Origin: Aeromonadales bacterium
GTDB lineage: Bacteria > Pseudomonadota > Gammaproteobacteria > Enterobacterales > Succinivibrionaceae
NCBI GenBank assembly: GCA_012519775.1
Contig: JAAYPN010000068.1
Location: forward strand, 1-49,459
Length of the DNA stretch: 49,459 nt
Direction: 5' to 3'
Below are positions 376-9,925 of the stretch, piece after piece (position 1 is the first letter of the stretch; every line of letters begins with the position of its first letter). The notes under the pieces were generated by a model that saw nothing but the letters and a program-made list of their open reading frames with translations, was not told where the DNA came from and did not search any database. The translations under genes were made by a program, and so were the position numbers.

Positions 376-3300
376 ATGATCCCACAGATATCCGACCTAA
401 CCAAGTTAGAGCCACTCTATGAAAAATACCTTAACACCTTAAAAAATCATGGATTTAAAGGCGATGTGGAATTTACACACTCCTCACGACTACTGTGCGC
501 AACTGACAACTCTGTTTATCAGAGAATGCCTCAGGGTGTGATCTTCCCTAAGGATAATGAAGATATCAGCATTGCAGTTAAAGTAAGAAATGCTCCTGTT
601 TTTGAAAAGCTGATTATCACTCCTCGTGGTGGCGGTACCGGTACTAACGGTCAATCATTAAATGATGGTGTAACCATCGACTGCTCTCGCTACATGAAAG
701 CAACTTCTAACTTCAATGAAGAAGACAGATCAATTTACGCTCAGGCAGGCGTAATCAAAGATGAGCTTAACGATTTTCTAAAACCTTATAAGTTATTCTT
801 CTCTCCAGAATTATCAACCTCAAGCAGAGCTTGTCTTGGCGGTATGATTAGTAACGATGCTGCAGGTCAGGGTTCATTAAAATACGGCAGAACATCAAAT
901 CACATTAAGGATGTCACTGTTGTTCTTTTAGATGGCACTATTACCACCTTTGGTTCTGTAAGCGGTGAGAAGCTTCATGAATGTCTGAAAAAAGACGGCC
1001 TTGAAGGTGACATTTACCGCGGCTGCTATGCTTTAGTAAAAGACAACCGTGAGGAAATTGAAAAAGTATTCCCTAAGTTAAACCGCTTCATGACAGGTTA
1101 TGACTTATACAACTGTTACGATCCTGAAACTGATACATTAAATCTTGCAAGAATCATCTGCGGTGCTGAAGGTACCCTTGCAATTATCTGTGGTGCTACA
1201 TTAGATTTAACTAAGACTCCTGATTTCAGAGAGCTTATGGTGGTTAAGTATGAGAACTTTGACAGTGCTCTTCGCCACGCCGTAGATTTGATTGATGCAG
1301 GTGTATTCTCTGTTGAAACTGTAGATTCACGCGTACTCTCTCTTGCTAAAAAAGATACTGTATGGAATAGCGTAAAAGACTATATTCAGGAAGTTGAAGG
1401 TCATGAGATTTTAGGTATCAATATTGTTGAATTCAACGGTTATGATAAAGATGCCGAGCATGAGAAATTATCAAGAATTTTTGATGCTGTATGTGAAAAG
1501 GCAAAGACCTTTGAAAATGGTATCTTAGGTGCTCAGATTGCAAGCACACCAAAGGCTGTTGCTGCAATTTACGGCATGAGAAAGAAATCTGTAGGTCTTT
1601 TAGGCGCAGCAGCTGGCGACAAGAAGCTTGTTGCCTTTACAGAAGATACTGTAGTTCCTCCAAGAAATCTTGCTGACTATATTCTTGAGTTTAGAGCATT
1701 ACTAGATTCTCTAAATGTTACCTACGGTATGTTCGGTCACGTTGATACAGGTCTGATGCATGTAAGACCTGCTCTTGATTTAACCACTGACGAGGATAAA
1801 GAGAAATTAGTAACAATCTCCAACAAGGTTGTAGAGCTTGTTAATAAGTATCAGGGTCAGATGTGGGGCGAGCATGGAAGAGGATACCGCTCATGCTATG
1901 GTGAGGTTTTCTTTAAGAGCTTATATCCTGTTGCAAGAAAGGTAAAAGAGCTTTTTGACCCTAAGAATATTTTAAATCCAGGTAAAATCTGCGTTCCATT
2001 CTCTAATAACGATGACAAGATTGTTTCTATCAACTCTCTTATGCGCGGTGATTTAGACAGAACCATTCCTGTAACTGTAAGAAATTCATTCAAGGGAGCA
2101 GTAAGCTGTAACGGTAACGGTCAGTGCTTCAGCTATGACAAGAGCGCACTGATGTGCCCTAGCTACCGTTACACCAAAAACCACATCAACTCACCTAAAG
2201 GCTACAGCGAGCTGATGCGTGAATGGATGCGCCTGATGAACGACAGAGGTCATAACATTGCATCTGAGGAAGTAGCACTGTTCACCTCAATGCCAAATCC
2301 TGTTAACTTTATCCGTCGTGTCTTTAACACTATTGCAACTAAAGGTACTGACTACTCTACTGAATATCTTGAGCACATCTCTACATGCTTATCATGCAAG
2401 TCATGTAAGAGTATCTGCCCTGCACACGTAAATGCAGCTGATTTAAACTCACGCTTCCTGGCTTTGTATTACAGCCGTTATTTACGTCCTTTAATGGATA
2501 TCCTGATTTTAAATGCAGAATTTTCTCTACCTTTAATGTCTAAGCTTCCAAAGCTTTCAAATGCCGTTTTATCCAATAAGTTCTTTAAGAAGTTTATGGC
2601 TAAGGTATTTGGCTTTGTGGATATTCCTCTATTTAGCACACAGACCTTTGCTAGTGCATGTAAAGAACATGAATTTGAAATTCTAAGTGCGCAAAAGGCA
2701 GAGAAATCAGACTACGAGGTCATCATCGTGACCGATCCGTTTACCGTATGCTATGAGTCAAACGGCTTAATCAAGATGGCTAACTTTATGCGTAATTTAG
2801 GCTATAAGGTGGCTTTCCTGCGTCCATACGTAAACGGCAAGATTAAAATTATTCGCGGTCAGAGAAGAAGCTTCCTGCATTTTGCTGCAAAGCAGTCTGC
2901 AAGATTAGAGAAAATTGCCAAAACCAATAAGGCTTTAGTAGGTTACGATCCTGCACTTACCATCTGCTATAGAGATGAGTACACTCAGATGCTAGGTGAC
3001 AACCGCGGTGAGTTTAACGTACTTCTTCCTGAGGAGTGGTTAAATGAGCAGTTTGGCACACAAAAATTCAATGAGAACTTTGATAAAATCAAAGACAAGG
3101 TATTAGCTGCAGCTAAGAGTGAGAAATTCGCATCTCCTTACTATCTGTTTACTCACTGCACAGAAAGAGCTTTAGTTACCAATGCTCCTTTAATGTGGCA
3201 GACTCTGCTAAACAGATTCGGTTTAGATCTGATCCCACTTAACGTTGCCTGCTGCGGTATGGCAGGTTTATTCGGCCATATTGCTAAAAACCATGACGAG

Positions 3301-3471
3301 ACATATGCCGTATACGAGAAAAACTGGAAAGGCGAGATTGCAAAACGCGATTTTGACCACTGTTTAATCACAGGCTTTAGCTGCCGTTCTCAGGTATACA
3401 GAATGGAACACAAGGAAGCTGTTCATCCATTGTTCGTACTTGACGACTTATTAAATGAGGTCAAAGACTAA
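376..3471 (+). CDS. ydiJ: FAD-binding and Fe-S-binding oxidoreductase (YdiJ / D-2-hydroxyglutarate dehydrogenase family)
   Basis: PRGGGTGTNGQ FAD loop, GEHG motif, CNGNGQC, MCPS and CLSCKSCKSICP Fe-S motifs, C-terminal CCG domain (CCGMAG, GFSCRSQ); RBS GAGG. Confidence 0.85.
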   Translation: MIPQISDLTKLEPLYEKYLNTLKNHGFKGDVEFTHSSRLLCATDNSVYQRMPQGVIFPKDNEDISIAVKVRNAPVFEKLIITPRGGGTGTNGQSLNDGVTIDCSRYMKATSNFNEEDRSIYAQAGVIKDELNDFLKPYKLFFSPELSTSSRACLGGMISNDAAGQGSLKYGRTSNHIKDVTVVLLDGTITTFGSVSGEKLHECLKKDGLEGDIYRGCYALVKDNREEIEKVFPKLNRFMTGYDLYNCYDPETDTLNLARIICGAEGTLAIICGATLDLTKTPDFRELMVVKYENFDSALRHAVDLIDAGVFSVETVDSRVLSLAKKDTVWNSVKDYIQEVEGHEILGINIVEFNGYDKDAEHEKLSRIFDAVCEKAKTFENGILGAQIASTPKAVAAIYGMRKKSVGLLGAAAGDKKLVAFTEDTVVPPRNLADYILEFRALLDSLNVTYGMFGHVDTGLMHVRPALDLTTDEDKEKLVTISNKVVELVNKYQGQMWGEHGRGYRSCYGEVFFKSLYPVARKVKELFDPKNILNPGKICVPFSNNDDKIVSINSLMRGDLDRTIPVTVRNSFKGAVSCNGNGQCFSYDKSALMCPSYRYTKNHINSPKGYSELMREWMRLMNDRGHNIASEEVALFTSMPNPVNFIRRVFNTIATKGTDYSTEYLEHISTCLSCKSCKSICPAHVNAADLNSRFLALYYSRYLRPLMDILILNAEFSLPLMSKLPKLSNAVLSNKFFKKFMAKVFGFVDIPLFSTQTFASACKEHEFEILSAQKAEKSDYEVIIVTDPFTVCYESNGLIKMANFMRNLGYKVAFLRPYVNGKIKIIRGQRRSFLHFAAKQSARLEKIAKTNKALVGYDPALTICYRDEYTQMLGDNRGEFNVLLPEEWLNEQFGTQKFNENFDKIKDKVLAAAKSEKFASPYYLFTHCTERALVTNAPLMWQTLLNRFGLDLIPLNVACCGMAGLFGHIAKNHDETYAVYEKNWKGEIAKRDFDHCLITGFSCRSQVYRMEHKEAVHPLFVLDDLLNEVKD

Positions 3472-3983
3472 TGACACTTCGCAATATCCTGGCTTACTTT
3501 TTTGGTAGCACTATTTTCTTTGTGATAGGACCTGCAATCATTATTGTTTTAGCCTGGTATTGCCCGTATGATTTTATGCCTCAGAATGTTGCATCAAATA
3601 TCTTTGGTGCCATCTGCTCAGCTGCAGGTTTATTCTTTGTGATATGGTCAAACTATGAACTTATAACCAAAGGTAAAGGCGGTGCTGTTGTTGTAGGACC
3701 AATAAAACTTACAAATGAGACTGTAAGACTTGTTACTACAGGACCATATGCTTTATGCAGAAATCCGATGCATATGGGAATTATATTGTTTTATTTAGGT
3801 CTTTGTTGTGCCATAAATTCAATATTAACATTAGTCGTTCCTTTTGGTATGCTTATATTTTCATTCTTATTTGCGTACTTTTTGGATGAACCTCGTTTAA
3901 AAAAAGATTTTCCAGAAGAATATCAAGAGTGGATTAAAGAAGTTCCACAAAGGTTTTGGCCAAAACCTAAAAAGGCCAGATAA
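3471..3983 (+). CDS. Isoprenylcysteine carboxyl methyltransferase / PEMT-family membrane protein
   Basis: Hydrophobic helices, LVTTGPYALCRNPMH motif, EPRL..F.EEY tail; start overlaps the ydiJ stop (TAATG). Confidence 0.8.
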   Translation: MTLRNILAYFFGSTIFFVIGPAIIIVLAWYCPYDFMPQNVASNIFGAICSAAGLFFVIWSNYELITKGKGGAVVVGPIKLTNETVRLVTTGPYALCRNPMHMGIILFYLGLCCAINSILTLVVPFGMLIFSFLFAYFLDEPRLKKDFPEEYQEWIKEVPQRFWPKPKKAR

Positions 3984-4000: not shown

Positions 4001-5710
4001 ATGACCATGATGTCAGGCGCACAAATGGTAGTGCGTACTCTTGAGGACTTAGGTGTTGAGCATTTATTTGGTTATCCAGGTGGTGCTGTTTTAGATATTT
4101 ATGATGCATTATTAGAATCTAAAAAGATTAAACACATTTTAGGCCGTCATGAGCAGGGAGTAGCACACGCCGCTGATGGTTATGCTCGTTCAACCGGTAA
4201 AGTTGGCATATGCCTTGTAACCTCCGGCCCTGGTGCAACTAACACTGTTACTTCAATTGCAACAGCTTACATGGATTCAATTCCAATGGTTGTATTAACA
4301 GGTCAGGTTGGCACTCCACTAATCGGCTCTGATGCTTTCCAGGAAGTTGATACTGTAGGTATTACAAGACCTATCGTAAAACACTCATATTTATGCCAGT
4401 GTGCTCTGGATATTCCAAAGTATATCCGTCAGGCATTCTATCTTGCTGCATCAGGAAGACCAGGTCCTGTTGTGGTTGATATTCCAAAAGACTGCGTAAG
4501 ACCATCTCTACGCTTTGAATATCCAGAGCAGGAAGGTCCTGTAAAATTACGTTCATACAATCCTACAAAACAGGGGCACCGCGGTCAGGTAAAAAGAGCA
4601 GCAAAACTTATCGCTGAATCTCTACGCCCTGTGATGCTTGTTGGCGGTGGAGCTCAGTTAGGTGGCGCAACCGATGAGGTAAGAGCAATTGCCAAGCGCT
4701 TTAATCTGCCTGTAACCTCAACTCTAATGGGTTTAGGTGTTTATCCATCAACTGATAAACAGTTCCTGGGTATGCTTGGTATGCATGGCACCTATGAAGC
4801 TAACAATGCTATGGATAAGGCTGATGTTGTATTTGCTATCGGCTGTCGCTTTGATGATCGTGTTACTAACAATCTTCAGAAGTTCTGCCCTGCAGCAAAA
4901 ATCATTCACATCGATATCGACCCTGCCTCAATCTCAAAGACTGTAAATGCTGACATTCCTATTGTTGGTGATTCAAAGATTGTATTAAATCAGTTTATCG
5001 AAGCTTTTGACGAGTTTAATTTAAAGGCAAACGAGACCATCTCATCATGGTGGGATGAGATTACAAAGTGGAGACACTTAGATTGTCTAAACTACGCAAA
5101 AGACGACAAACTAATTCAGCCCCAGGAAATTATTGAAGCTGTTTATAAGGCAACCAAGGGTCAGGCTATCATCGCAACTGACGTTGGTCAGCACCAGATG
5201 TTTACCGCTTTATACTACAAATTTGATGAACCAAGACACCTTTTAACATCCGGTGGCTTAGGTACCATGGGTTACGGTTTCCCTGCAGCTGTAGGTGCAG
5301 CTGTTGCATATCCTGACAAGGACGTTTGCTTGTTTACAGGTGACGGTTCATTCCAGATGAATATTCAGGAGCTGTCAACCTGTCTTGAGTATGGTCTGCC
5401 AGTTAAAATCTTTATCTTAGATAACCACACCTTAGGTATGGTTCGTCAGTGGCAGAGAATGTTCTATAAAGGACACATCAGCTCTACAAACTTAAACTCA
5501 AACCCTGACTTTGTGGCTTTAGCTAAAGCCTATGGTCACGAGGGTATGAGAGTTACCGATCCTAAAGATCTGGACAGTGCTGTAGAAAAGGCATTATCCA
5601 TGAAGGATAAGCTGGTGGTTGTTGACATCGTATGTAACACCGATGCTAAGGTTCTACCTATGCAGCAGGCTGGTGGCAGCATGTCAGATATGTTCTTAAA
5701 CGAGGATTAA
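4001..5710 (+). CDS. ilvI: Acetolactate synthase (AHAS III-type) large subunit, copy 1
   Basis: FGYPGGA, RHEQG, TSGPGATN, RFDDRVT, GDGSFQMN TPP motif, LGMVRQWQ; RBS AGGAG at 3990-3994. Confidence 0.93.
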   Translation: MTMMSGAQMVVRTLEDLGVEHLFGYPGGAVLDIYDALLESKKIKHILGRHEQGVAHAADGYARSTGKVGICLVTSGPGATNTVTSIATAYMDSIPMVVLTGQVGTPLIGSDAFQEVDTVGITRPIVKHSYLCQCALDIPKYIRQAFYLAASGRPGPVVVDIPKDCVRPSLRFEYPEQEGPVKLRSYNPTKQGHRGQVKRAAKLIAESLRPVMLVGGGAQLGGATDEVRAIAKRFNLPVTSTLMGLGVYPSTDKQFLGMLGMHGTYEANNAMDKADVVFAIGCRFDDRVTNNLQKFCPAAKIIHIDIDPASISKTVNADIPIVGDSKIVLNQFIEAFDEFNLKANETISSWWDEITKWRHLDCLNYAKDDKLIQPQEIIEAVYKATKGQAIIATDVGQHQMFTALYYKFDEPRHLLTSGGLGTMGYGFPAAVGAAVAYPDKDVCLFTGDGSFQMNIQELSTCLEYGLPVKIFILDNHTLGMVRQWQRMFYKGHISSTNLNSNPDFVALAKAYGHEGMRVTDPKDLDSAVEKALSMKDKLVVVDIVCNTDAKVLPMQQAGGSMSDMFLNED

Positions 5711-5712
5711 CC

Positions 5713-6216
5713 ATGCGTCAGATCATCTCAATCTTACTTGAAAATGAAGTTGGTGCATTATCGCGCGTAGTTGGATTATTCTCTCAGCGAGGTTACAATA
5801 TCGAAAACATTACCGCAGCTCCAACTGAGGATAAGACCCTTTCAAGAATCACTATTCTTACAGAGGGTGACGGCACAATAGTTGAAAGAATCACTAAACA
5901 GCTTCACAAGCTTGTTAACGTAATCAAGGTTTCATCTCAGCAGGACGATTCCTGCGGCATCGTAGAGCGTGAGATCCTATTCGTTAAGGTTCAGGCTGTA
6001 GGCCACACACAACGTGAAGAAATCAAGACTTTATGTGATATCTTCAAGGCAGAAATTGTCGATATTACCCCTGAGTTATACATTCTTCAGTTTGTGAACA
6101 CTTCTTTTGAAGTGGACAGATTCTTAAAGGCTGTCGCAGAGCAGGCAGAAGTCATCGAGACTGTCCGTTCAGGAGTGTGTGGTATTTTCAGAGGCGAACA
6201 CTCTTTACATTCATAA
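5713..6216 (+). CDS. ilvH: Acetolactate synthase small (regulatory) subunit, copy 1
   Basis: ACT domain LENEVGALSRVVGLFSQRGYNI; EREI and RSGV motifs; 2 nt after ilvI. Confidence 0.93.
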   Translation: MRQIISILLENEVGALSRVVGLFSQRGYNIENITAAPTEDKTLSRITILTEGDGTIVERITKQLHKLVNVIKVSSQQDDSCGIVEREILFVKVQAVGHTQREEIKTLCDIFKAEIVDITPELYILQFVNTSFEVDRFLKAVAEQAEVIETVRSGVCGIFRGEHSLHS

Positions 6217-6233
6217 AGATTAAAGAATGCTAT

Positions 6234-6267
6234 AAAGCCTCCTACAATAGTATGGAGGCTTTTTTTT
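6234..6267 (+). terminator. Rho-independent terminator after ilvH copy 1
   Basis: AAAGCCTCC / GGAGGCTTT stem running into a T tract. Confidence 0.8.
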
Positions 6268-6281
6268 GTTATGGAAGCATT

Positions 6282-7298
6282 ATGGAACAGCAATATTCAG
6301 AGCAGAAAAAACAGATCCTAAAACAAATTAATGATCTTTATAAGGACGGCGATCTGTTTAAGGTAATCGATCTTTTAGAGAACTGCCAATTGGACTTTGA
6401 TTTATGTCTTCAGCTTGTACGTACCTATATCAATGTAGCACGACAGTCAGGCGATCCATATACCCTGTTTTCAAAAGCTCAAAGGCTTTTAGATAACTTC
6501 TCAAAGCAGGGCCATGATAATTCCTACTACCAGTTCTATCAGGGATGTATTCTCTTTAATTCAGGTCTTATTGCTGACAGTATTATCCGCTTTGAGCAGG
6601 CACTAAAGTTTGTTCCTGCAACCGATCCTACTCTGCTTTGCAATATACAGATCTATAAAGACAAGGCTACCTCACTTGAAACAGTAGCTTCATTTAATGG
6701 TTGCAGCAAAGATGAAGAGCTTTTGCTTCTTAGCCATTACAAAAAGCACTTTAATAATGAGCCTATGTGTTACTCAAAAGTAGGCAGCGTTAATCTGTAT
6801 GTAATAAAGCCATCAGACAATCATGACTACAACATGCTTGTAACTACAGGTCTTAGCGGTAAAAATCAGAAGTCAAAAGATGGACTATCTGAAGATTTTG
6901 AACTCTGTTTTGCCCTTCCAAAGGATTTTTCAACATCTGATCCAAAAGAAGTACCTTTTGAGATTTCCATGTTTGAAGAGGTGGTTACAAACCTTATCTG
7001 CCAGAAGGATTTTATAGGTTTTGGCTATTATTTAGAAAAAGACAGATCATTTTCAAAGACCACTGCTTTTAACGGCGTGATGTTCTGCGGTCTTGGAGAT
7101 TATAAAAAAGAAGCTCAGTGCATGAGCATAGGGGATAAGACCATCTCCTTTTTAGAGATGATCCCATTACGTCCTATGGAACTTAATTTCAGAAAGAATA
7201 ACTCTGCAAATGCACTGCTAGAATTATTCAAAGAGCAGCAGATAATGCTGACTCCGTTTATAAAGACACGTGACGACGTATGTCGCACCATAAGTTAA
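6282..7298 (+). CDS. TPR-like N-terminus plus suppressor-of-fused (SUFU) domain protein
   Basis: SUFU hallmarks (YNMLVTTGLS, FELCFALP, ISFLEMIPLRPMELNFRKNNSANALLELF); TPR-like YYQFYQGCILF...IIRFEQALKF. Start moved from 6177 to ATG 6282 because the longer ORF overlaps ilvH and its terminator. Confidence 0.7.
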   Translation: MEQQYSEQKKQILKQINDLYKDGDLFKVIDLLENCQLDFDLCLQLVRTYINVARQSGDPYTLFSKAQRLLDNFSKQGHDNSYYQFYQGCILFNSGLIADSIIRFEQALKFVPATDPTLLCNIQIYKDKATSLETVASFNGCSKDEELLLLSHYKKHFNNEPMCYSKVGSVNLYVIKPSDNHDYNMLVTTGLSGKNQKSKDGLSEDFELCFALPKDFSTSDPKEVPFEISMFEEVVTNLICQKDFIGFGYYLEKDRSFSKTTAFNGVMFCGLGDYKKEAQCMSIGDKTISFLEMIPLRPMELNFRKNNSANALLELFKEQQIMLTPFIKTRDDVCRTIS

Positions 7299-7328
7299 TT
7301 ACCATTAGCAGTTAATATAGGAGGCTGT

Positions 7329-7388
7329 ATGAGACTAAACCTTCCTTTCAACTTTTTCCTGAAAAACAAAGTACGAGTGTGCCACTAA
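7329..7388 (+). CDS. Putative 19-aa small ORF MRLNLPFNFFLKNKVRVCH
   Basis: AGGAGG at 7319-7324, 4 nt before ATG; TAA 7386-7388; upstream of ilvI copy 2. Confidence 0.3.
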   Translation: MRLNLPFNFFLKNKVRVCH

Positions 7389-7481
7389 TTTGAACTTTTC
7401 TAGAAATTGCTTAATTGTGTATATAAAGATAATTAAGCTTTAGTGTAAAATTACTGTGTATTTGGTAAAAGAAATTAAATT

Positions 7482-9203
7482 ATGGAAAAATTAAACGGCG
7501 CACAACAGGTAGTTCGAGTATTAGAAGATCTTGGTGTTACCAGAATTTTTGGTTATCCAGGAGCAGCTGTAACAGATATTTACGATGAACTATATGATTC
7601 TAAAAAGATTATTCACACTCTAGCACGACATGAGCAGGGTGCTGTACACATGGCTGACGGCTATGCAAGAGCAACAGGTGAGGTTGGTGTATCAATTGTA
7701 ACCTCAGGTCCTGGTGCTACTAATACAGTAACAGCACTTGCAACAGCCTATGGCGATTCTATTCCTCTTGTTTTAATTACAGGTCAGGTAAGCACAGATT
7801 TAATCGGCACTGATGCTTTCCAGGAAGTTGATACCATGGGTGTCACAAGACCTGTCGTTAAGTACTCATTCTTATGCAAGAAGCCAGAGGATATTGCAAA
7901 AAACATCCGAAAGGCATTCTATATTGCATCAACAGGCCGTAAAGGACCTGTTGTGGTAGATATTCCAAAGAACTGTCAGAACAGAGCTTACGCATTCGAT
8001 TATGATGAGAACCCTGATGTTCGTATAAGATCATACAACCCAACCGTATTCGGTCACAAAGGCCAGATTAAGCGTGCAGTAAGTGAGCTTTTAAAAGCTA
8101 AACAGCCTGTTATGCTATTAGGTGGTGGTGTCGTTCAGGGAGATGCAAGCGAAGAGGCCACAAAGATAGCTCATCGTCTGAATCTGCCTGTAGTCTCAAC
8201 TCTGATGGGTATTTCAGCCTTCCCTGCATCCGACCCTCAGTATCTTGGCATGCTTGGTATGCACGGTCTTTATGAAGCTAATGAGACCATGCACAACTCA
8301 GATTTAATCTTTGCTGTAGGTACTCGCTTTGCAGATAGAGCAACCAACAAGGTTTCAAAGTTCTGCCCTAATGCAACTATCGTTCACATCGATGTTGATC
8401 CTGCTTCAATCTCTAAGACTGTTCAGGCTGACATTCCTATTGTGGGTGATGCCAAGACTATTTTAAGTCAGATTAGCGTTGCCCTTGATGAGGTTCAGGC
8501 TAAAGCATCAGAGAACATCAGTGCATGGTGGGATAAAATCAACACCTTTAAGGCTAAAAACTGCCTGAAGTTTGCCAAAAAAGATGGCATGATAAGACCT
8601 CAGGAAGTTATTCAGGCCATTTCAAAGGTTTGTCATGAACTCAATATCGATCCTATCGTAACTACTGATGTTGGTCAGCACCAGATGTTTACCGCGCAGT
8701 ACTTCAAATTTGAGAAACCAAGACATTTTATTACCTCAGGTGGACTTGGTACCATGGGACTTGGTTTCCCTGCCGCTATCGGCGCACAGTTTGCAAAACC
8801 AAAAGATCTTGTAATCTGTATCTCAGGTGACGGCTCTTTCCAGATGAATATGCAGGAACTTGCCGTGTGCAGAAAGTATAATCTTCCTGTTAAGGTATTT
8901 ATTCTAGATAACTCTGTTTTAGGTATGGTTCGTCAGTTCCAGACCGTATTCTATGAGCAGCGCTACTGCGCTACTAATCTTGATGGTAATCCAGACTTTG
9001 TAAAATTAGTCGATGCCTATGGATTTAAGGGTATCAGAATCACTGATGATGATAAACTTGAAGACACCATAAGACAGGTATTACTAGATAAAGACAATTT
9101 CACCCTGGTTGATATCATTACCGATACCAACACAAGGGTAATGCCATGGCTAAGAGCTAATGGTTCTATGATTGACATGATGTTAAATAACGAGGAGAAA
9201 TAA
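7482..9203 (+). CDS. ilvI: Acetolactate synthase large subunit, copy 2 (divergent active-site residues)
   Basis: RHEQG, TSGPGATN, GDGSFQMN retained; variant motifs FGYPGAA, RFADRAT, LGMVRQFQ. Confidence 0.9.
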   Translation: MEKLNGAQQVVRVLEDLGVTRIFGYPGAAVTDIYDELYDSKKIIHTLARHEQGAVHMADGYARATGEVGVSIVTSGPGATNTVTALATAYGDSIPLVLITGQVSTDLIGTDAFQEVDTMGVTRPVVKYSFLCKKPEDIAKNIRKAFYIASTGRKGPVVVDIPKNCQNRAYAFDYDENPDVRIRSYNPTVFGHKGQIKRAVSELLKAKQPVMLLGGGVVQGDASEEATKIAHRLNLPVVSTLMGISAFPASDPQYLGMLGMHGLYEANETMHNSDLIFAVGTRFADRATNKVSKFCPNATIVHIDVDPASISKTVQADIPIVGDAKTILSQISVALDEVQAKASENISAWWDKINTFKAKNCLKFAKKDGMIRPQEVIQAISKVCHELNIDPIVTTDVGQHQMFTAQYFKFEKPRHFITSGGLGTMGLGFPAAIGAQFAKPKDLVICISGDGSFQMNMQELAVCRKYNLPVKVFILDNSVLGMVRQFQTVFYEQRYCATNLDGNPDFVKLVDAYGFKGIRITDDDKLEDTIRQVLLDKDNFTLVDIITDTNTRVMPWLRANGSMIDMMLNNEEK

Positions 9204-9707
9204 ATGAGACACGTAATTTCAATTCTAATTGAGAACGAGGCAGGTGCCTTATCACGTGTTGTAGGTTTATTCTCACAGCGTGGTTACAACATCGACAGCT
9301 TAACTGTCGCTCCTACTGATGATCCTACCCTATCACGTTGTACTATTCTTACAACAGGTGAGAAGGACGAGGCAGAGCAGATAACCAAACAGCTACATAA
9401 ACTTGTATGCGTATTTAGAGTCTCTGCTTTATGTGAGGAAGCAGAAGGCGGCATAGAGCGTGAGATGGTATTAGTAAAGGTGAATACACCTAACCGCAAC
9501 GTTCGTGATGAGGTAAAGAGTCTTGCCGATATCTTTGGAGCAAAGATCATTGATGTTAATGCTGAGATCTTTACTATTCAGTATGTTGGTAATTCAGATG
9601 AGACAGACAACTTCATTCAGACTCTATGCAAACTTGCTGAGGTAGTTGAAGTAGTTCGCTCAGGTGTTCTTGGAATTGCCAAAGGCTCACACTTCATGAA
9701 GCCTTAA
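9204..9707 (+). CDS. ilvH: Acetolactate synthase small subunit, copy 2
   Basis: IENEAGALSRVVGLFSQRGYNIDSLTVAPTDDPTLSR, very close to the E. coli IlvH ACT domain; abuts the ilvI stop. Confidence 0.93.
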   Translation: MRHVISILIENEAGALSRVVGLFSQRGYNIDSLTVAPTDDPTLSRCTILTTGEKDEAEQITKQLHKLVCVFRVSALCEEAEGGIEREMVLVKVNTPNRNVRDEVKSLADIFGAKIIDVNAEIFTIQYVGNSDETDNFIQTLCKLAEVVEVVRSGVLGIAKGSHFMKP

Positions 9708-9715
9708 AAATGCAA

Positions 9716-9750
9716 AATCTCCCTGGTTTCAGACTGGGGGGATTACTCTT
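9716..9750 (+). terminator. Hairpin after ilvH copy 2 (terminator-like, weak U tract)
   Basis: AATCTCCCTGGT / ACTGGGGGGATT 12-bp stem with G.U pairs that work only on the + strand. Confidence 0.5.
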
Positions 9751-9892
9751 AGGCTACCTCTCAATACAACCTCTCCATCATCAGTTATCTTCAGTTAAAG
9801 TGAGTATTATGGCTTATTGCAGCATAGGAATATCTGCATCTGTATAAACAATTCTGATTTGAAAGTTGGTGATTATAAGAAGAGAGGAAATG

Positions 9893-9925
9893 AAAAAGCC
9901 CAGACTAGACAGACTGGGCATTTTT
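9893..9925 (-). terminator. Terminator of the rpsP-rimM-trmD-rplS operon (possibly bidirectional)
   Basis: GCCCAG / CTGGGC stem flanked by A5 and T5 tracts. Confidence 0.75.

Follow-up and report, generated by a model that had tools for sequence, protein, structure and literature searches.

Acetohydroxyacid synthase (AHAS) sets the balance between valine and leucine on the one hand and isoleucine on the other, and a lone, valine-inhibited form of the enzyme can starve a cell of isoleucine. A stretch of DNA from an Aeromonadales bacterium of the family Succinivibrionaceae (GenBank assembly GCA_012519775.1, contig JAAYPN010000068.1, positions 1 to 49,459 of the forward strand; ‘the window’ denotes all 49,459 nucleotides) carries two ilvI-ilvH gene pairs for this enzyme, and raises the question of why both should be maintained side by side. 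A prediction made earlier from the letters of the DNA (the original prediction) had described them as intact pairs about 1.3 kb apart that show signs of specialisation as isozymes, distinguished by a Trp or a Phe residue at the second-substrate site. Four open reading frames were indeed found, with 1,265 bp between the end of ilvH copy 1 and the start of ilvI copy 2, and the pairs are real, old and conserved paralogues on the known theme of AHAS isozymes, outside AHAS I and AHAS II. Comparison of their residues leads us to regard it as probable, if well short of certain, that copy 2 is a valine-inhibited, acetolactate-biased isozyme and that copy 1 is isoleucine-competent and less sensitive to valine, in the manner of Escherichia coli AHAS I and AHAS II.

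Both pairs appear, by their sequences, to be biosynthetic AHAS (EC 2.2.1.6) of the ilvI, or AHAS III, type, with the reservations that copy 2 lacks the Trp used as a criterion for that class and that neither copy reaches the curated cut-off set for the named AHAS III equivalog models. With 830 and 783 bits, the catalytic subunits exceed the TIGR00118 cut-off of 538, and they carry three thiamine diphosphate (ThDP)-enzyme domains (Pfam N, M and C), while both small subunits exceed the cut-offs of TIGR00119 and PRK11895, the nearest structure to the regulatory subunit being E. coli IlvH (2F1F). Residues equivalent to E. coli IlvG E47, F109, Q110, K159, M250, R276, V375 and M460 are kept in both copies. 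At the position of IlvG W464, which aligns with E. coli IlvI W484, copy 1 has Trp484 (codon TGG) and copy 2 has Phe486 (TTC); these codons, and the accompanying differences PGGA to PGAA, RFDDRVT to RFADRAT and VLPMQ to VMPWL, read as had been predicted, and AHAS I, as the original prediction held, is without this Trp (E. coli IlvB has Q480 at the aligned position). A structural model of copy 2 matches plant and yeast AHAS (TM score about 0.89), with predicted local distance difference test (pLDDT) values below 50 from residue 558; no contacts are seen for W556 in this model, which is unreliable beyond residue 557. The genome, 96.6% complete, has these two AHAS-like genes only, together with ilvA, ilvC, ilvD and leuA.

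Most of the named records in which copy-2-like proteins occur, at 69-83% identity, bear the title Succinivibrio or Succinatimonas, and the source genus is thus likely to be Succinivibrio in the GTDB sense. Of 24 genomes of the source genus, 23 have two copies, as do all 12 genomes of five further genera (g20, g21, g22, g24 and g29), while one close copy was found in 33 genomes of 11 other genera (20 of these 33 genomes were fetched); the small subunits gave the same pattern. In a 52-row IQ-TREE phylogeny, which included ilvG-like rows and from which IlvB itself was absent, copy 2 formed a clade (support 100/100) that is sister to copy 1 together with genera g18 and g19 (99/96); as the original prediction required, the two copies grouped with each other (99/97) inside gammaproteobacterial ilvI, apart from the ilvG-like rows, and not with unrelated AHAS clades. 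Copy 1 stands alone in g18, g19 and the single-contig genome G003, while copy 2 without copy 1 was seen in no genome searched. The topology of the tree therefore indicates one duplication, with copy 2 lost later in g18, g19 and G003, and that duplication is old and common to six genera of the family. The proposal that an isozyme split had arisen anew from one ilvIH ancestor thus stood as regards a single ancestor, independent of AHAS I and AHAS II, but the split did not begin at the Trp site.

A recent duplication, or wholesale gene conversion, is ruled out by the 58% identity of the large subunits (that of the small subunits is 54%) and by the parallel trees. Purifying selection acts on both copies, with ratios of nonsynonymous to synonymous substitution rates (dN/dS) of 0.00-0.12 for copy 2 (19 pairs) and 0.02-0.12 for copy 1 (18 computable pairs), and the former values rule out copy 2 as a pseudogene. 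The nucleotide blocks that the two copies had been said to share were found in the form of a 26-base block (at 5183 and 8670) upon a conserved protein motif, but, with codon use taken into account, its length is of borderline significance, the mean of a synonymous-shuffle null being 18.3 and 6% of 300 shuffles reaching 26. Identical runs of 35-53 bases between the copies, exceeding the shuffle null, were noted in genomes G022, G073, G012 and G024, and possibly represent short gene-conversion tracts.

Comparison of the catalytic subunits across these genera established the order of their changes. Ala28 is present in all 45 copy-2 proteins. Phe486 occurs together with Trp556 (in place of Met556) in 33/33 copy-2 proteins of the source genus, and both Trp486 and Met556 are kept in 12/12 copy-2 proteins from the five other genera; the change from Trp to Phe is therefore a late step on a copy that was already separate. 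D284A is found in 32 of the 33 proteins from the source genus, the earliest-branching one keeping Asp. The order was accordingly: (i) G28A in copy 2 and L33I/V35A in the regulator of copy 1; (ii) W486F with M556W, later, in one genus; and (iii) D284A. The sister genera hold a living intermediate, in which copy 2 has Ala28 and still has Trp. The change of RFDDRVT to RFADRAT had also been counted as a sign of specialisation; it is real, but D285 and R286 are unchanged by it, and similar variation around R286 is seen in the family's single-copy Trp enzymes. At one locus (L082, genome G014), copy 1 has Asn for Met480 and no small subunit beside it, the copy-2 regulator being the only one present; Asn at the same site was found also in G094 and in two of the T-box-led genes described below (L388 and L389).

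Ala at position 28 was found as well in two catabolic AlsS enzymes and in E. coli Gcl. Phe is reportedly among the W464 mutants that have been tested. A W464 to Leu mutant of E. coli AHAS II loses its preference for 2-ketobutyrate, AHAS I has Gln at that position, and AHAS I is valine-inhibited whereas AHAS II is valine-insensitive (PMC5727371). The plant W574L enzyme is active and herbicide-resistant (PMC9188596), and Gly at position 28 was described as invariant among 38 AHAS (PMC5298238). No paper on this duplication, on the convergent signature described below, on a measurement of the Trp to Phe change in AHAS or on V35A was found in a literature search in which the subscription journals that hold much AHAS enzymology were poorly covered.

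Differences between the regulatory subunits are an addition to the original prediction. Leu33 and Val35 were found in 45/45 copy-2 regulators, in E. coli IlvH and in 13/13 relatives that have a single copy and lie outside the duplication; among 150 IlvH-like representatives (126 scorable) 115 have Leu/Val and 6 have Ile/Ala. Ile33 and Ala35, by comparison, were found in each of the 43 copy-1 regulators scored from the six genera with two copies, two large subunits having been without a scorable partner. V35 is one of the valine-binding residues of E. coli IlvH, together with L9, N11, L16 and N29, and changes at the matching residue of the Corynebacterium glutamicum subunit alter feedback (PMC11893703). 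In genus g18, from which copy 2 has been lost and in which the spacing of ilvI and ilvH is 113-345 bp, two of five regulators (L107 and L088, from single-copy genomes and of the copy-1 type) have Leu33 and Val35, possibly by reversion after that loss.

Taken in combination, these residues suggest a mechanism in which the two intact AHAS that stem from an old tandem duplication of ilvIH would divide the work. Ala28 and Phe486 would narrow or weaken the 2-ketobutyrate site of copy 2, reducing but not abolishing the use of that substrate, and copy 2 would make mostly acetolactate (for valine and leucine) and be shut off by valine. Ala35 may loosen the valine pocket of regulator 1, so that copy 1 is proposed to keep making acetohydroxybutyrate when valine is plentiful; with its preference for 2-ketobutyrate retained, and with a partial escape from valine, it would allow isoleucine synthesis to continue whenever the gut is rich in valine, while copy 2 would add valine capacity when valine is scarce. 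The pair would work like E. coli AHAS II and AHAS I, rebuilt from the parts of AHAS III. Copy 2 is intact and constrained, and isozyme specialisation, as originally predicted, is likely.

Elements of the same pattern were found in other bacteria (whose family and order names, other than those in record titles, are the ones that we take to apply). A scan for the Phe motif gave at least 120 stretches, 119 of them AHAS-like among the matches listed, that span many phyla; W556 is present in 7 of these 119, all copy-2-like, and was rejected as a general partner of Phe, being absent from the other 112. A single origin of these Phe-type proteins with copy 2 was rejected by an approximately unbiased (AU) test (p 7e-4), as was the import of copy 2 by horizontal transfer from the Phe-type enzymes of other phyla. 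Among 32 hand-picked Phe-type genomes that were searched, a second strong AHAS is present in 13, each of which has Trp in one of its strong copies. Regulators with Ile33/Ala35 were found beside a Leu33/Val35 regulator, the latter adjoining the Phe gene, in Acetatifactor-like, Gracilibacteraceae and two deltaproteobacterial genomes. A single clade of Ile33/Ala35 regulators was rejected (AU p 5e-5), four changes being forced, and among genomes that have a second copy this state has at least three origins. In the G124 family, represented by a draw of 91 genomes that are kin and by a fetched set that favoured matches to an Ile33/Ala35 query, Leu33/Val35 was present in 22 of 23 fetched single-regulator genomes, and a small residue at position 35 in 26 two-regulator genomes and one single-regulator genome.

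Control sequences with a bearing on valine accompany several of these second copies. The four genes with Ala28 and Phe that were examined from Geobacter-like records all lie behind a leader peptide in which 4-6 valines follow one another, and behind it come hairpins with T runs; a fifth such leader was found in a draw of 41 genomes, where none of 28 Trp genes had one, and no small subunit gene was found beside any of the five AHAS genes (loci in Table 1). The leader of E. coli ilvBN is also valine-rich. In the G124 family, two sets of loci (9 and 20) yielded one and eight T-boxes, respectively, all 5' of second copies, with GUA (Val) as the specifier in all nine (eight by pattern, one by eye). 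It can be suggested, tentatively and with rather more doubt than belief, that bacteria have repeatedly rebuilt a Val-versus-Ile pair, with an Ile33/Ala35 regulator on the main enzyme to evade feedback by valine, Ala28 and then Phe486 in the accessory one to keep out 2-ketobutyrate, and valine-specific expression of the accessory; on this view at least three lineages, Succinivibrio among them, would have done so independently, with W556 as a previously unreported tuning site.

Several observations weigh against both the division of labour and its recurrence. A regulator with Ile33/Ala35 serves the sole AHAS in G003, in g19 and in three of the five g18 genomes, and Geobacter-like Trp copies keep Leu33/Val35 also where a Phe copy is present. 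In 19 of the 32 genomes (of which the completeness is not given), nothing but the Phe-type gene matches at E<1e-100; ilvC is present in all five Phe-type genomes tested for it, and in G112 the Phe-type gene clusters with ilvC and a citramalate synthase gene (over cut-off). Phe therefore seems compatible with isoleucine synthesis, and what is predicted is a lower ratio, not one of zero. Of the nine copies behind a Val T-box, Trp is kept in eight and Ala28 is found in only five, and amino-acid-specific control can sit on proteins that are themselves unspecific (PMC2494555). The convergent cases are few lineages rather than independent genomes, and the valine control signals lie in other phyla, the source family offering a weak upstream frame only.

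The invariable coupling of F486 with W556 in the source genus also counts on that side, as W556 may restore the surface that was lost with the Trp. It points to a serious but, in our estimation, unlikely alternative, in which only regulation has been divided: the surface removed by W486F would be replaced by W556 of the C-terminal arm, the substrate ratios of the two enzymes would be similar, and they would differ in feedback and expression. The retention of Trp by copy 2 in five genera, the existence of sole Phe-type enzymes and the Trp of those eight T-box copies would all be expected if this were so. The absence of W556 from the 112 other Phe-type proteins listed, however, makes it no general partner of Phe, the coupling amounts to one event on one branch, and Ala28 is fixed in copy 2 and is shared with the pyruvate-only AlsS. 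Retention of copy 2 for dosage or for acetolactate overflow (towards pantothenate, branched-chain fatty acid precursors or acetoin), with the residue differences as tolerated drift, is very improbable; copy 2 has been dispensable in G003, g18 and g19, and the residues near R286 vary in single-copy enzymes too, but in each copy the differences are fixed throughout six genera, and unrelated lineages show them again, and acetolactate decarboxylase (PF03306) was not found in the 96.6% complete genome. To our knowledge, moreover, catabolic AlsS has no regulator of this kind, which tells against overflow as well.

The original prediction had offered, as its other outcome, a new carboligase specificity for copy 2, acting for example on glyoxylate as in Gcl or in the AHAS II glyoxylate route to 2-ketobutyrate, and this fared worst, being the most improbable of the explanations considered. 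Copy 2 does share Ala28 and Ala284 with E. coli Gcl, and AHAS II is able to join glyoxylate to pyruvate (bioRxiv 10.1101/2025.08.26.672309). Nevertheless, copy 2 keeps E51, F113, Q114, K163, M260, R286, V397, M482 and V483, and where it has E51, K163, M260, D285, V397, M482 and V483 the residues of Gcl are V, F, L, N, I, L and I; the two proteins are 33% identical, and copy 2 scores 422 bits against the PRK11269 (Gcl) cut-off of 791. In addition, copy 2 retains a canonical valine-type regulator, threonine deaminase was found in 69 of 70 family genomes, and the neighbouring genes suggest no other pathway.

Within the source family, the region upstream of copy 2 (in an alignment from which row G006 was left out) contains a short frame that may encode a leader peptide. 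Two of its 19 codons specify Val, and no clear terminator was seen; Arg(CGA)-Val(GTG) at about codons 15-17 is in frame in 7 of 33 genomes, which form one sub-clade and among which the rest of the peptide has diverged, and the frame has a single occurrence in the source genome. An Rfam search of 12 family loci gave no match. Conserved non-coding blocks that differ between genera were noted 5' of copy 2 at L071-L075 (g20) and at L070 and L078 (g21), and are possible control elements; no Rfam match at the gathering score was found for those scanned (all but L075). Each of the four genes is covered in part by contigs of one gut metatranscriptome (X1) that match at about 98-99% identity, the covered parts including 7788-8169 and 9524-9908, but cover was present in every bin of a 20-kb stretch, so that carry-over of DNA is possible and transcription is neither shown nor ranked by these contigs. 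In three biogas runs, long pieces fell on copy 1 only, among the matches listed, and acetolactate synthase is not mentioned in the available text, or in one supplement, of a Succinivibrio dextrinosolvens transcriptome paper (PMC7507024).

The features of the locus, together with the valine-linked leaders and T-boxes found elsewhere, are collected in Table 1. The SUFU-domain gene that occupies the gap is kept between the pairs across the source genus and persists in G003 despite the loss of copy 2, and the end of a SUFU-like gene also lies 5' of ilvI copy 2 in many relatives. Genes for a YdiJ-like D-2-hydroxyacid dehydrogenase and a membrane methyltransferase (376-3983 in the window) precede ilvIH copy 1 with gaps of less than 20 bp; copy 1 is therefore likely to be co-transcribed with them, and there is no space for an attenuator of its own. 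A promoter and terminator scan of the locus gave results at chance level, and the pattern scan for hairpins, with a loop limit of 8, did not report the hairpin 3' of ilvH copy 1. Contigs from runs X6 and X7 diverge from the window sequence at 3979 and 5230 and share loose ends, which may mean that some strain carries an insertion or rearrangement at copy 1, or that the match is unrelated.

Table 1. Features of the tandem ilvIH locus (window coordinates) and valine-linked leader elements at loci of other genomes.
Feature	Position or locus	Strand	Basis and remarks
ilvI copy 1 (AHAS catalytic subunit, 569 aa)	4001..5710	+	ORF, TIGR00118, alignment; G28/W484/M554 type; Trp484 codon 5450-5452
ilvH copy 1 (regulatory subunit, 167 aa)	5713..6216	+	TIGR00119; Ile33 (5809-5811) and Ala35 (5815-5817) in valine-binding ACT domain
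Terminator-like hairpin and T run 3' of ilvH copy 1 (9-bp stem, 11-base loop)	6234..6267	+	By eye; putative
SUFU-domain gene between the pairs	6282..7298	+	Pfam PF05076, E 3e-16; start codon inferred
19-codon upstream frame; possible leader peptide of copy 2	7329-7388	+	GGAGG ribosome site; weak
ilvI copy 2 (AHAS catalytic subunit, 573 aa)	7482..9203	+	A28 (7563-7565), A284, F486 (8937-8939), W556 (9147-9149)
ilvH copy 2 (regulatory subunit, 167 aa)	9204..9707	+	Canonical Leu33 and Val35, also Ile9
Valine-run leaders before orphan A28+Phe AHAS genes, Geobacter-like	L312, L317, L318, L319, L394		
Val-specifier T-boxes before second ilvB-ilvN pairs, G124 family	L311, L378, L379, L381, L382, L384, L386, L388, L389		

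Should the reading of copy 1 and copy 2 as a divided pair be correct, the E. coli solution would be a recurring design rather than an enterobacterial accident; it would be accompanied by a short list of residues (28, 486 and 556, with 33 and 35 in the regulator) and by living intermediates, and would supply natural variants for use in producers of valine or isobutanol, and help in annotating the numerous second ilvB genes of bacteria from gut and sediment. The enzyme family and the kind of job are already known, and the recurrence of a signature of residues and regulation across phyla is the most interesting part.

Among known systems, E. coli AHAS III (ilvIH) is the closest by sequence (large subunits 56% and 53% identical, small subunits 54% and 56%), and has the same operon order and the same two-domain, 167-residue regulator, both pairs being nested in its clade; it differs in that two pairs are present here, and in that E. 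coli IlvI and IlvH are without A28, F486, W556 and I33/A35. AlsS and Gcl resemble copy 2 in having Ala at 28 and no Trp at 486, and Gcl in having Ala at 284 as well, but they are only 26% and 33% identical to it, respectively; copy 2 keeps the AHAS residues E51, F113, K163, D285, R286 and V397 and a regulatory subunit, and the decarboxylase that would pair it with AlsS was not found in the source genome. The second ilvBN copies of Lachnospiraceae-like, Geobacter-like and other deltaproteobacterial genomes are alike in that the accessory enzyme often has Ala or Val at 28 and/or Phe486 with a Leu33/Val35 regulator, and is placed under a valine-specific leader or T-box, while the main copy often has an Ile33/Ala35 regulator; they are unlike the present pair in their separate origins (AU p 7e-4 for the Phe-type proteins and 5e-5 for I33/A35), and none has W556. 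Finally, the present pair likely follows the logic of E. coli AHAS I (ilvBN) and AHAS II (ilvGM), a valine-inhibited enzyme without the Trp beside a valine-escaping enzyme that has it (PMC5727371). No descent links the systems, however, their identity being 38-44%: AHAS I has Gln rather than Phe, keeps Gly28 and has in IlvB a subunit that is 38% identical to copy 2, and the regulators of AHAS I and AHAS II are short, one-domain proteins, whereas those found here are full-length IlvH (26% identical to IlvN), in which the escape from valine is predicted to have been achieved by point changes.

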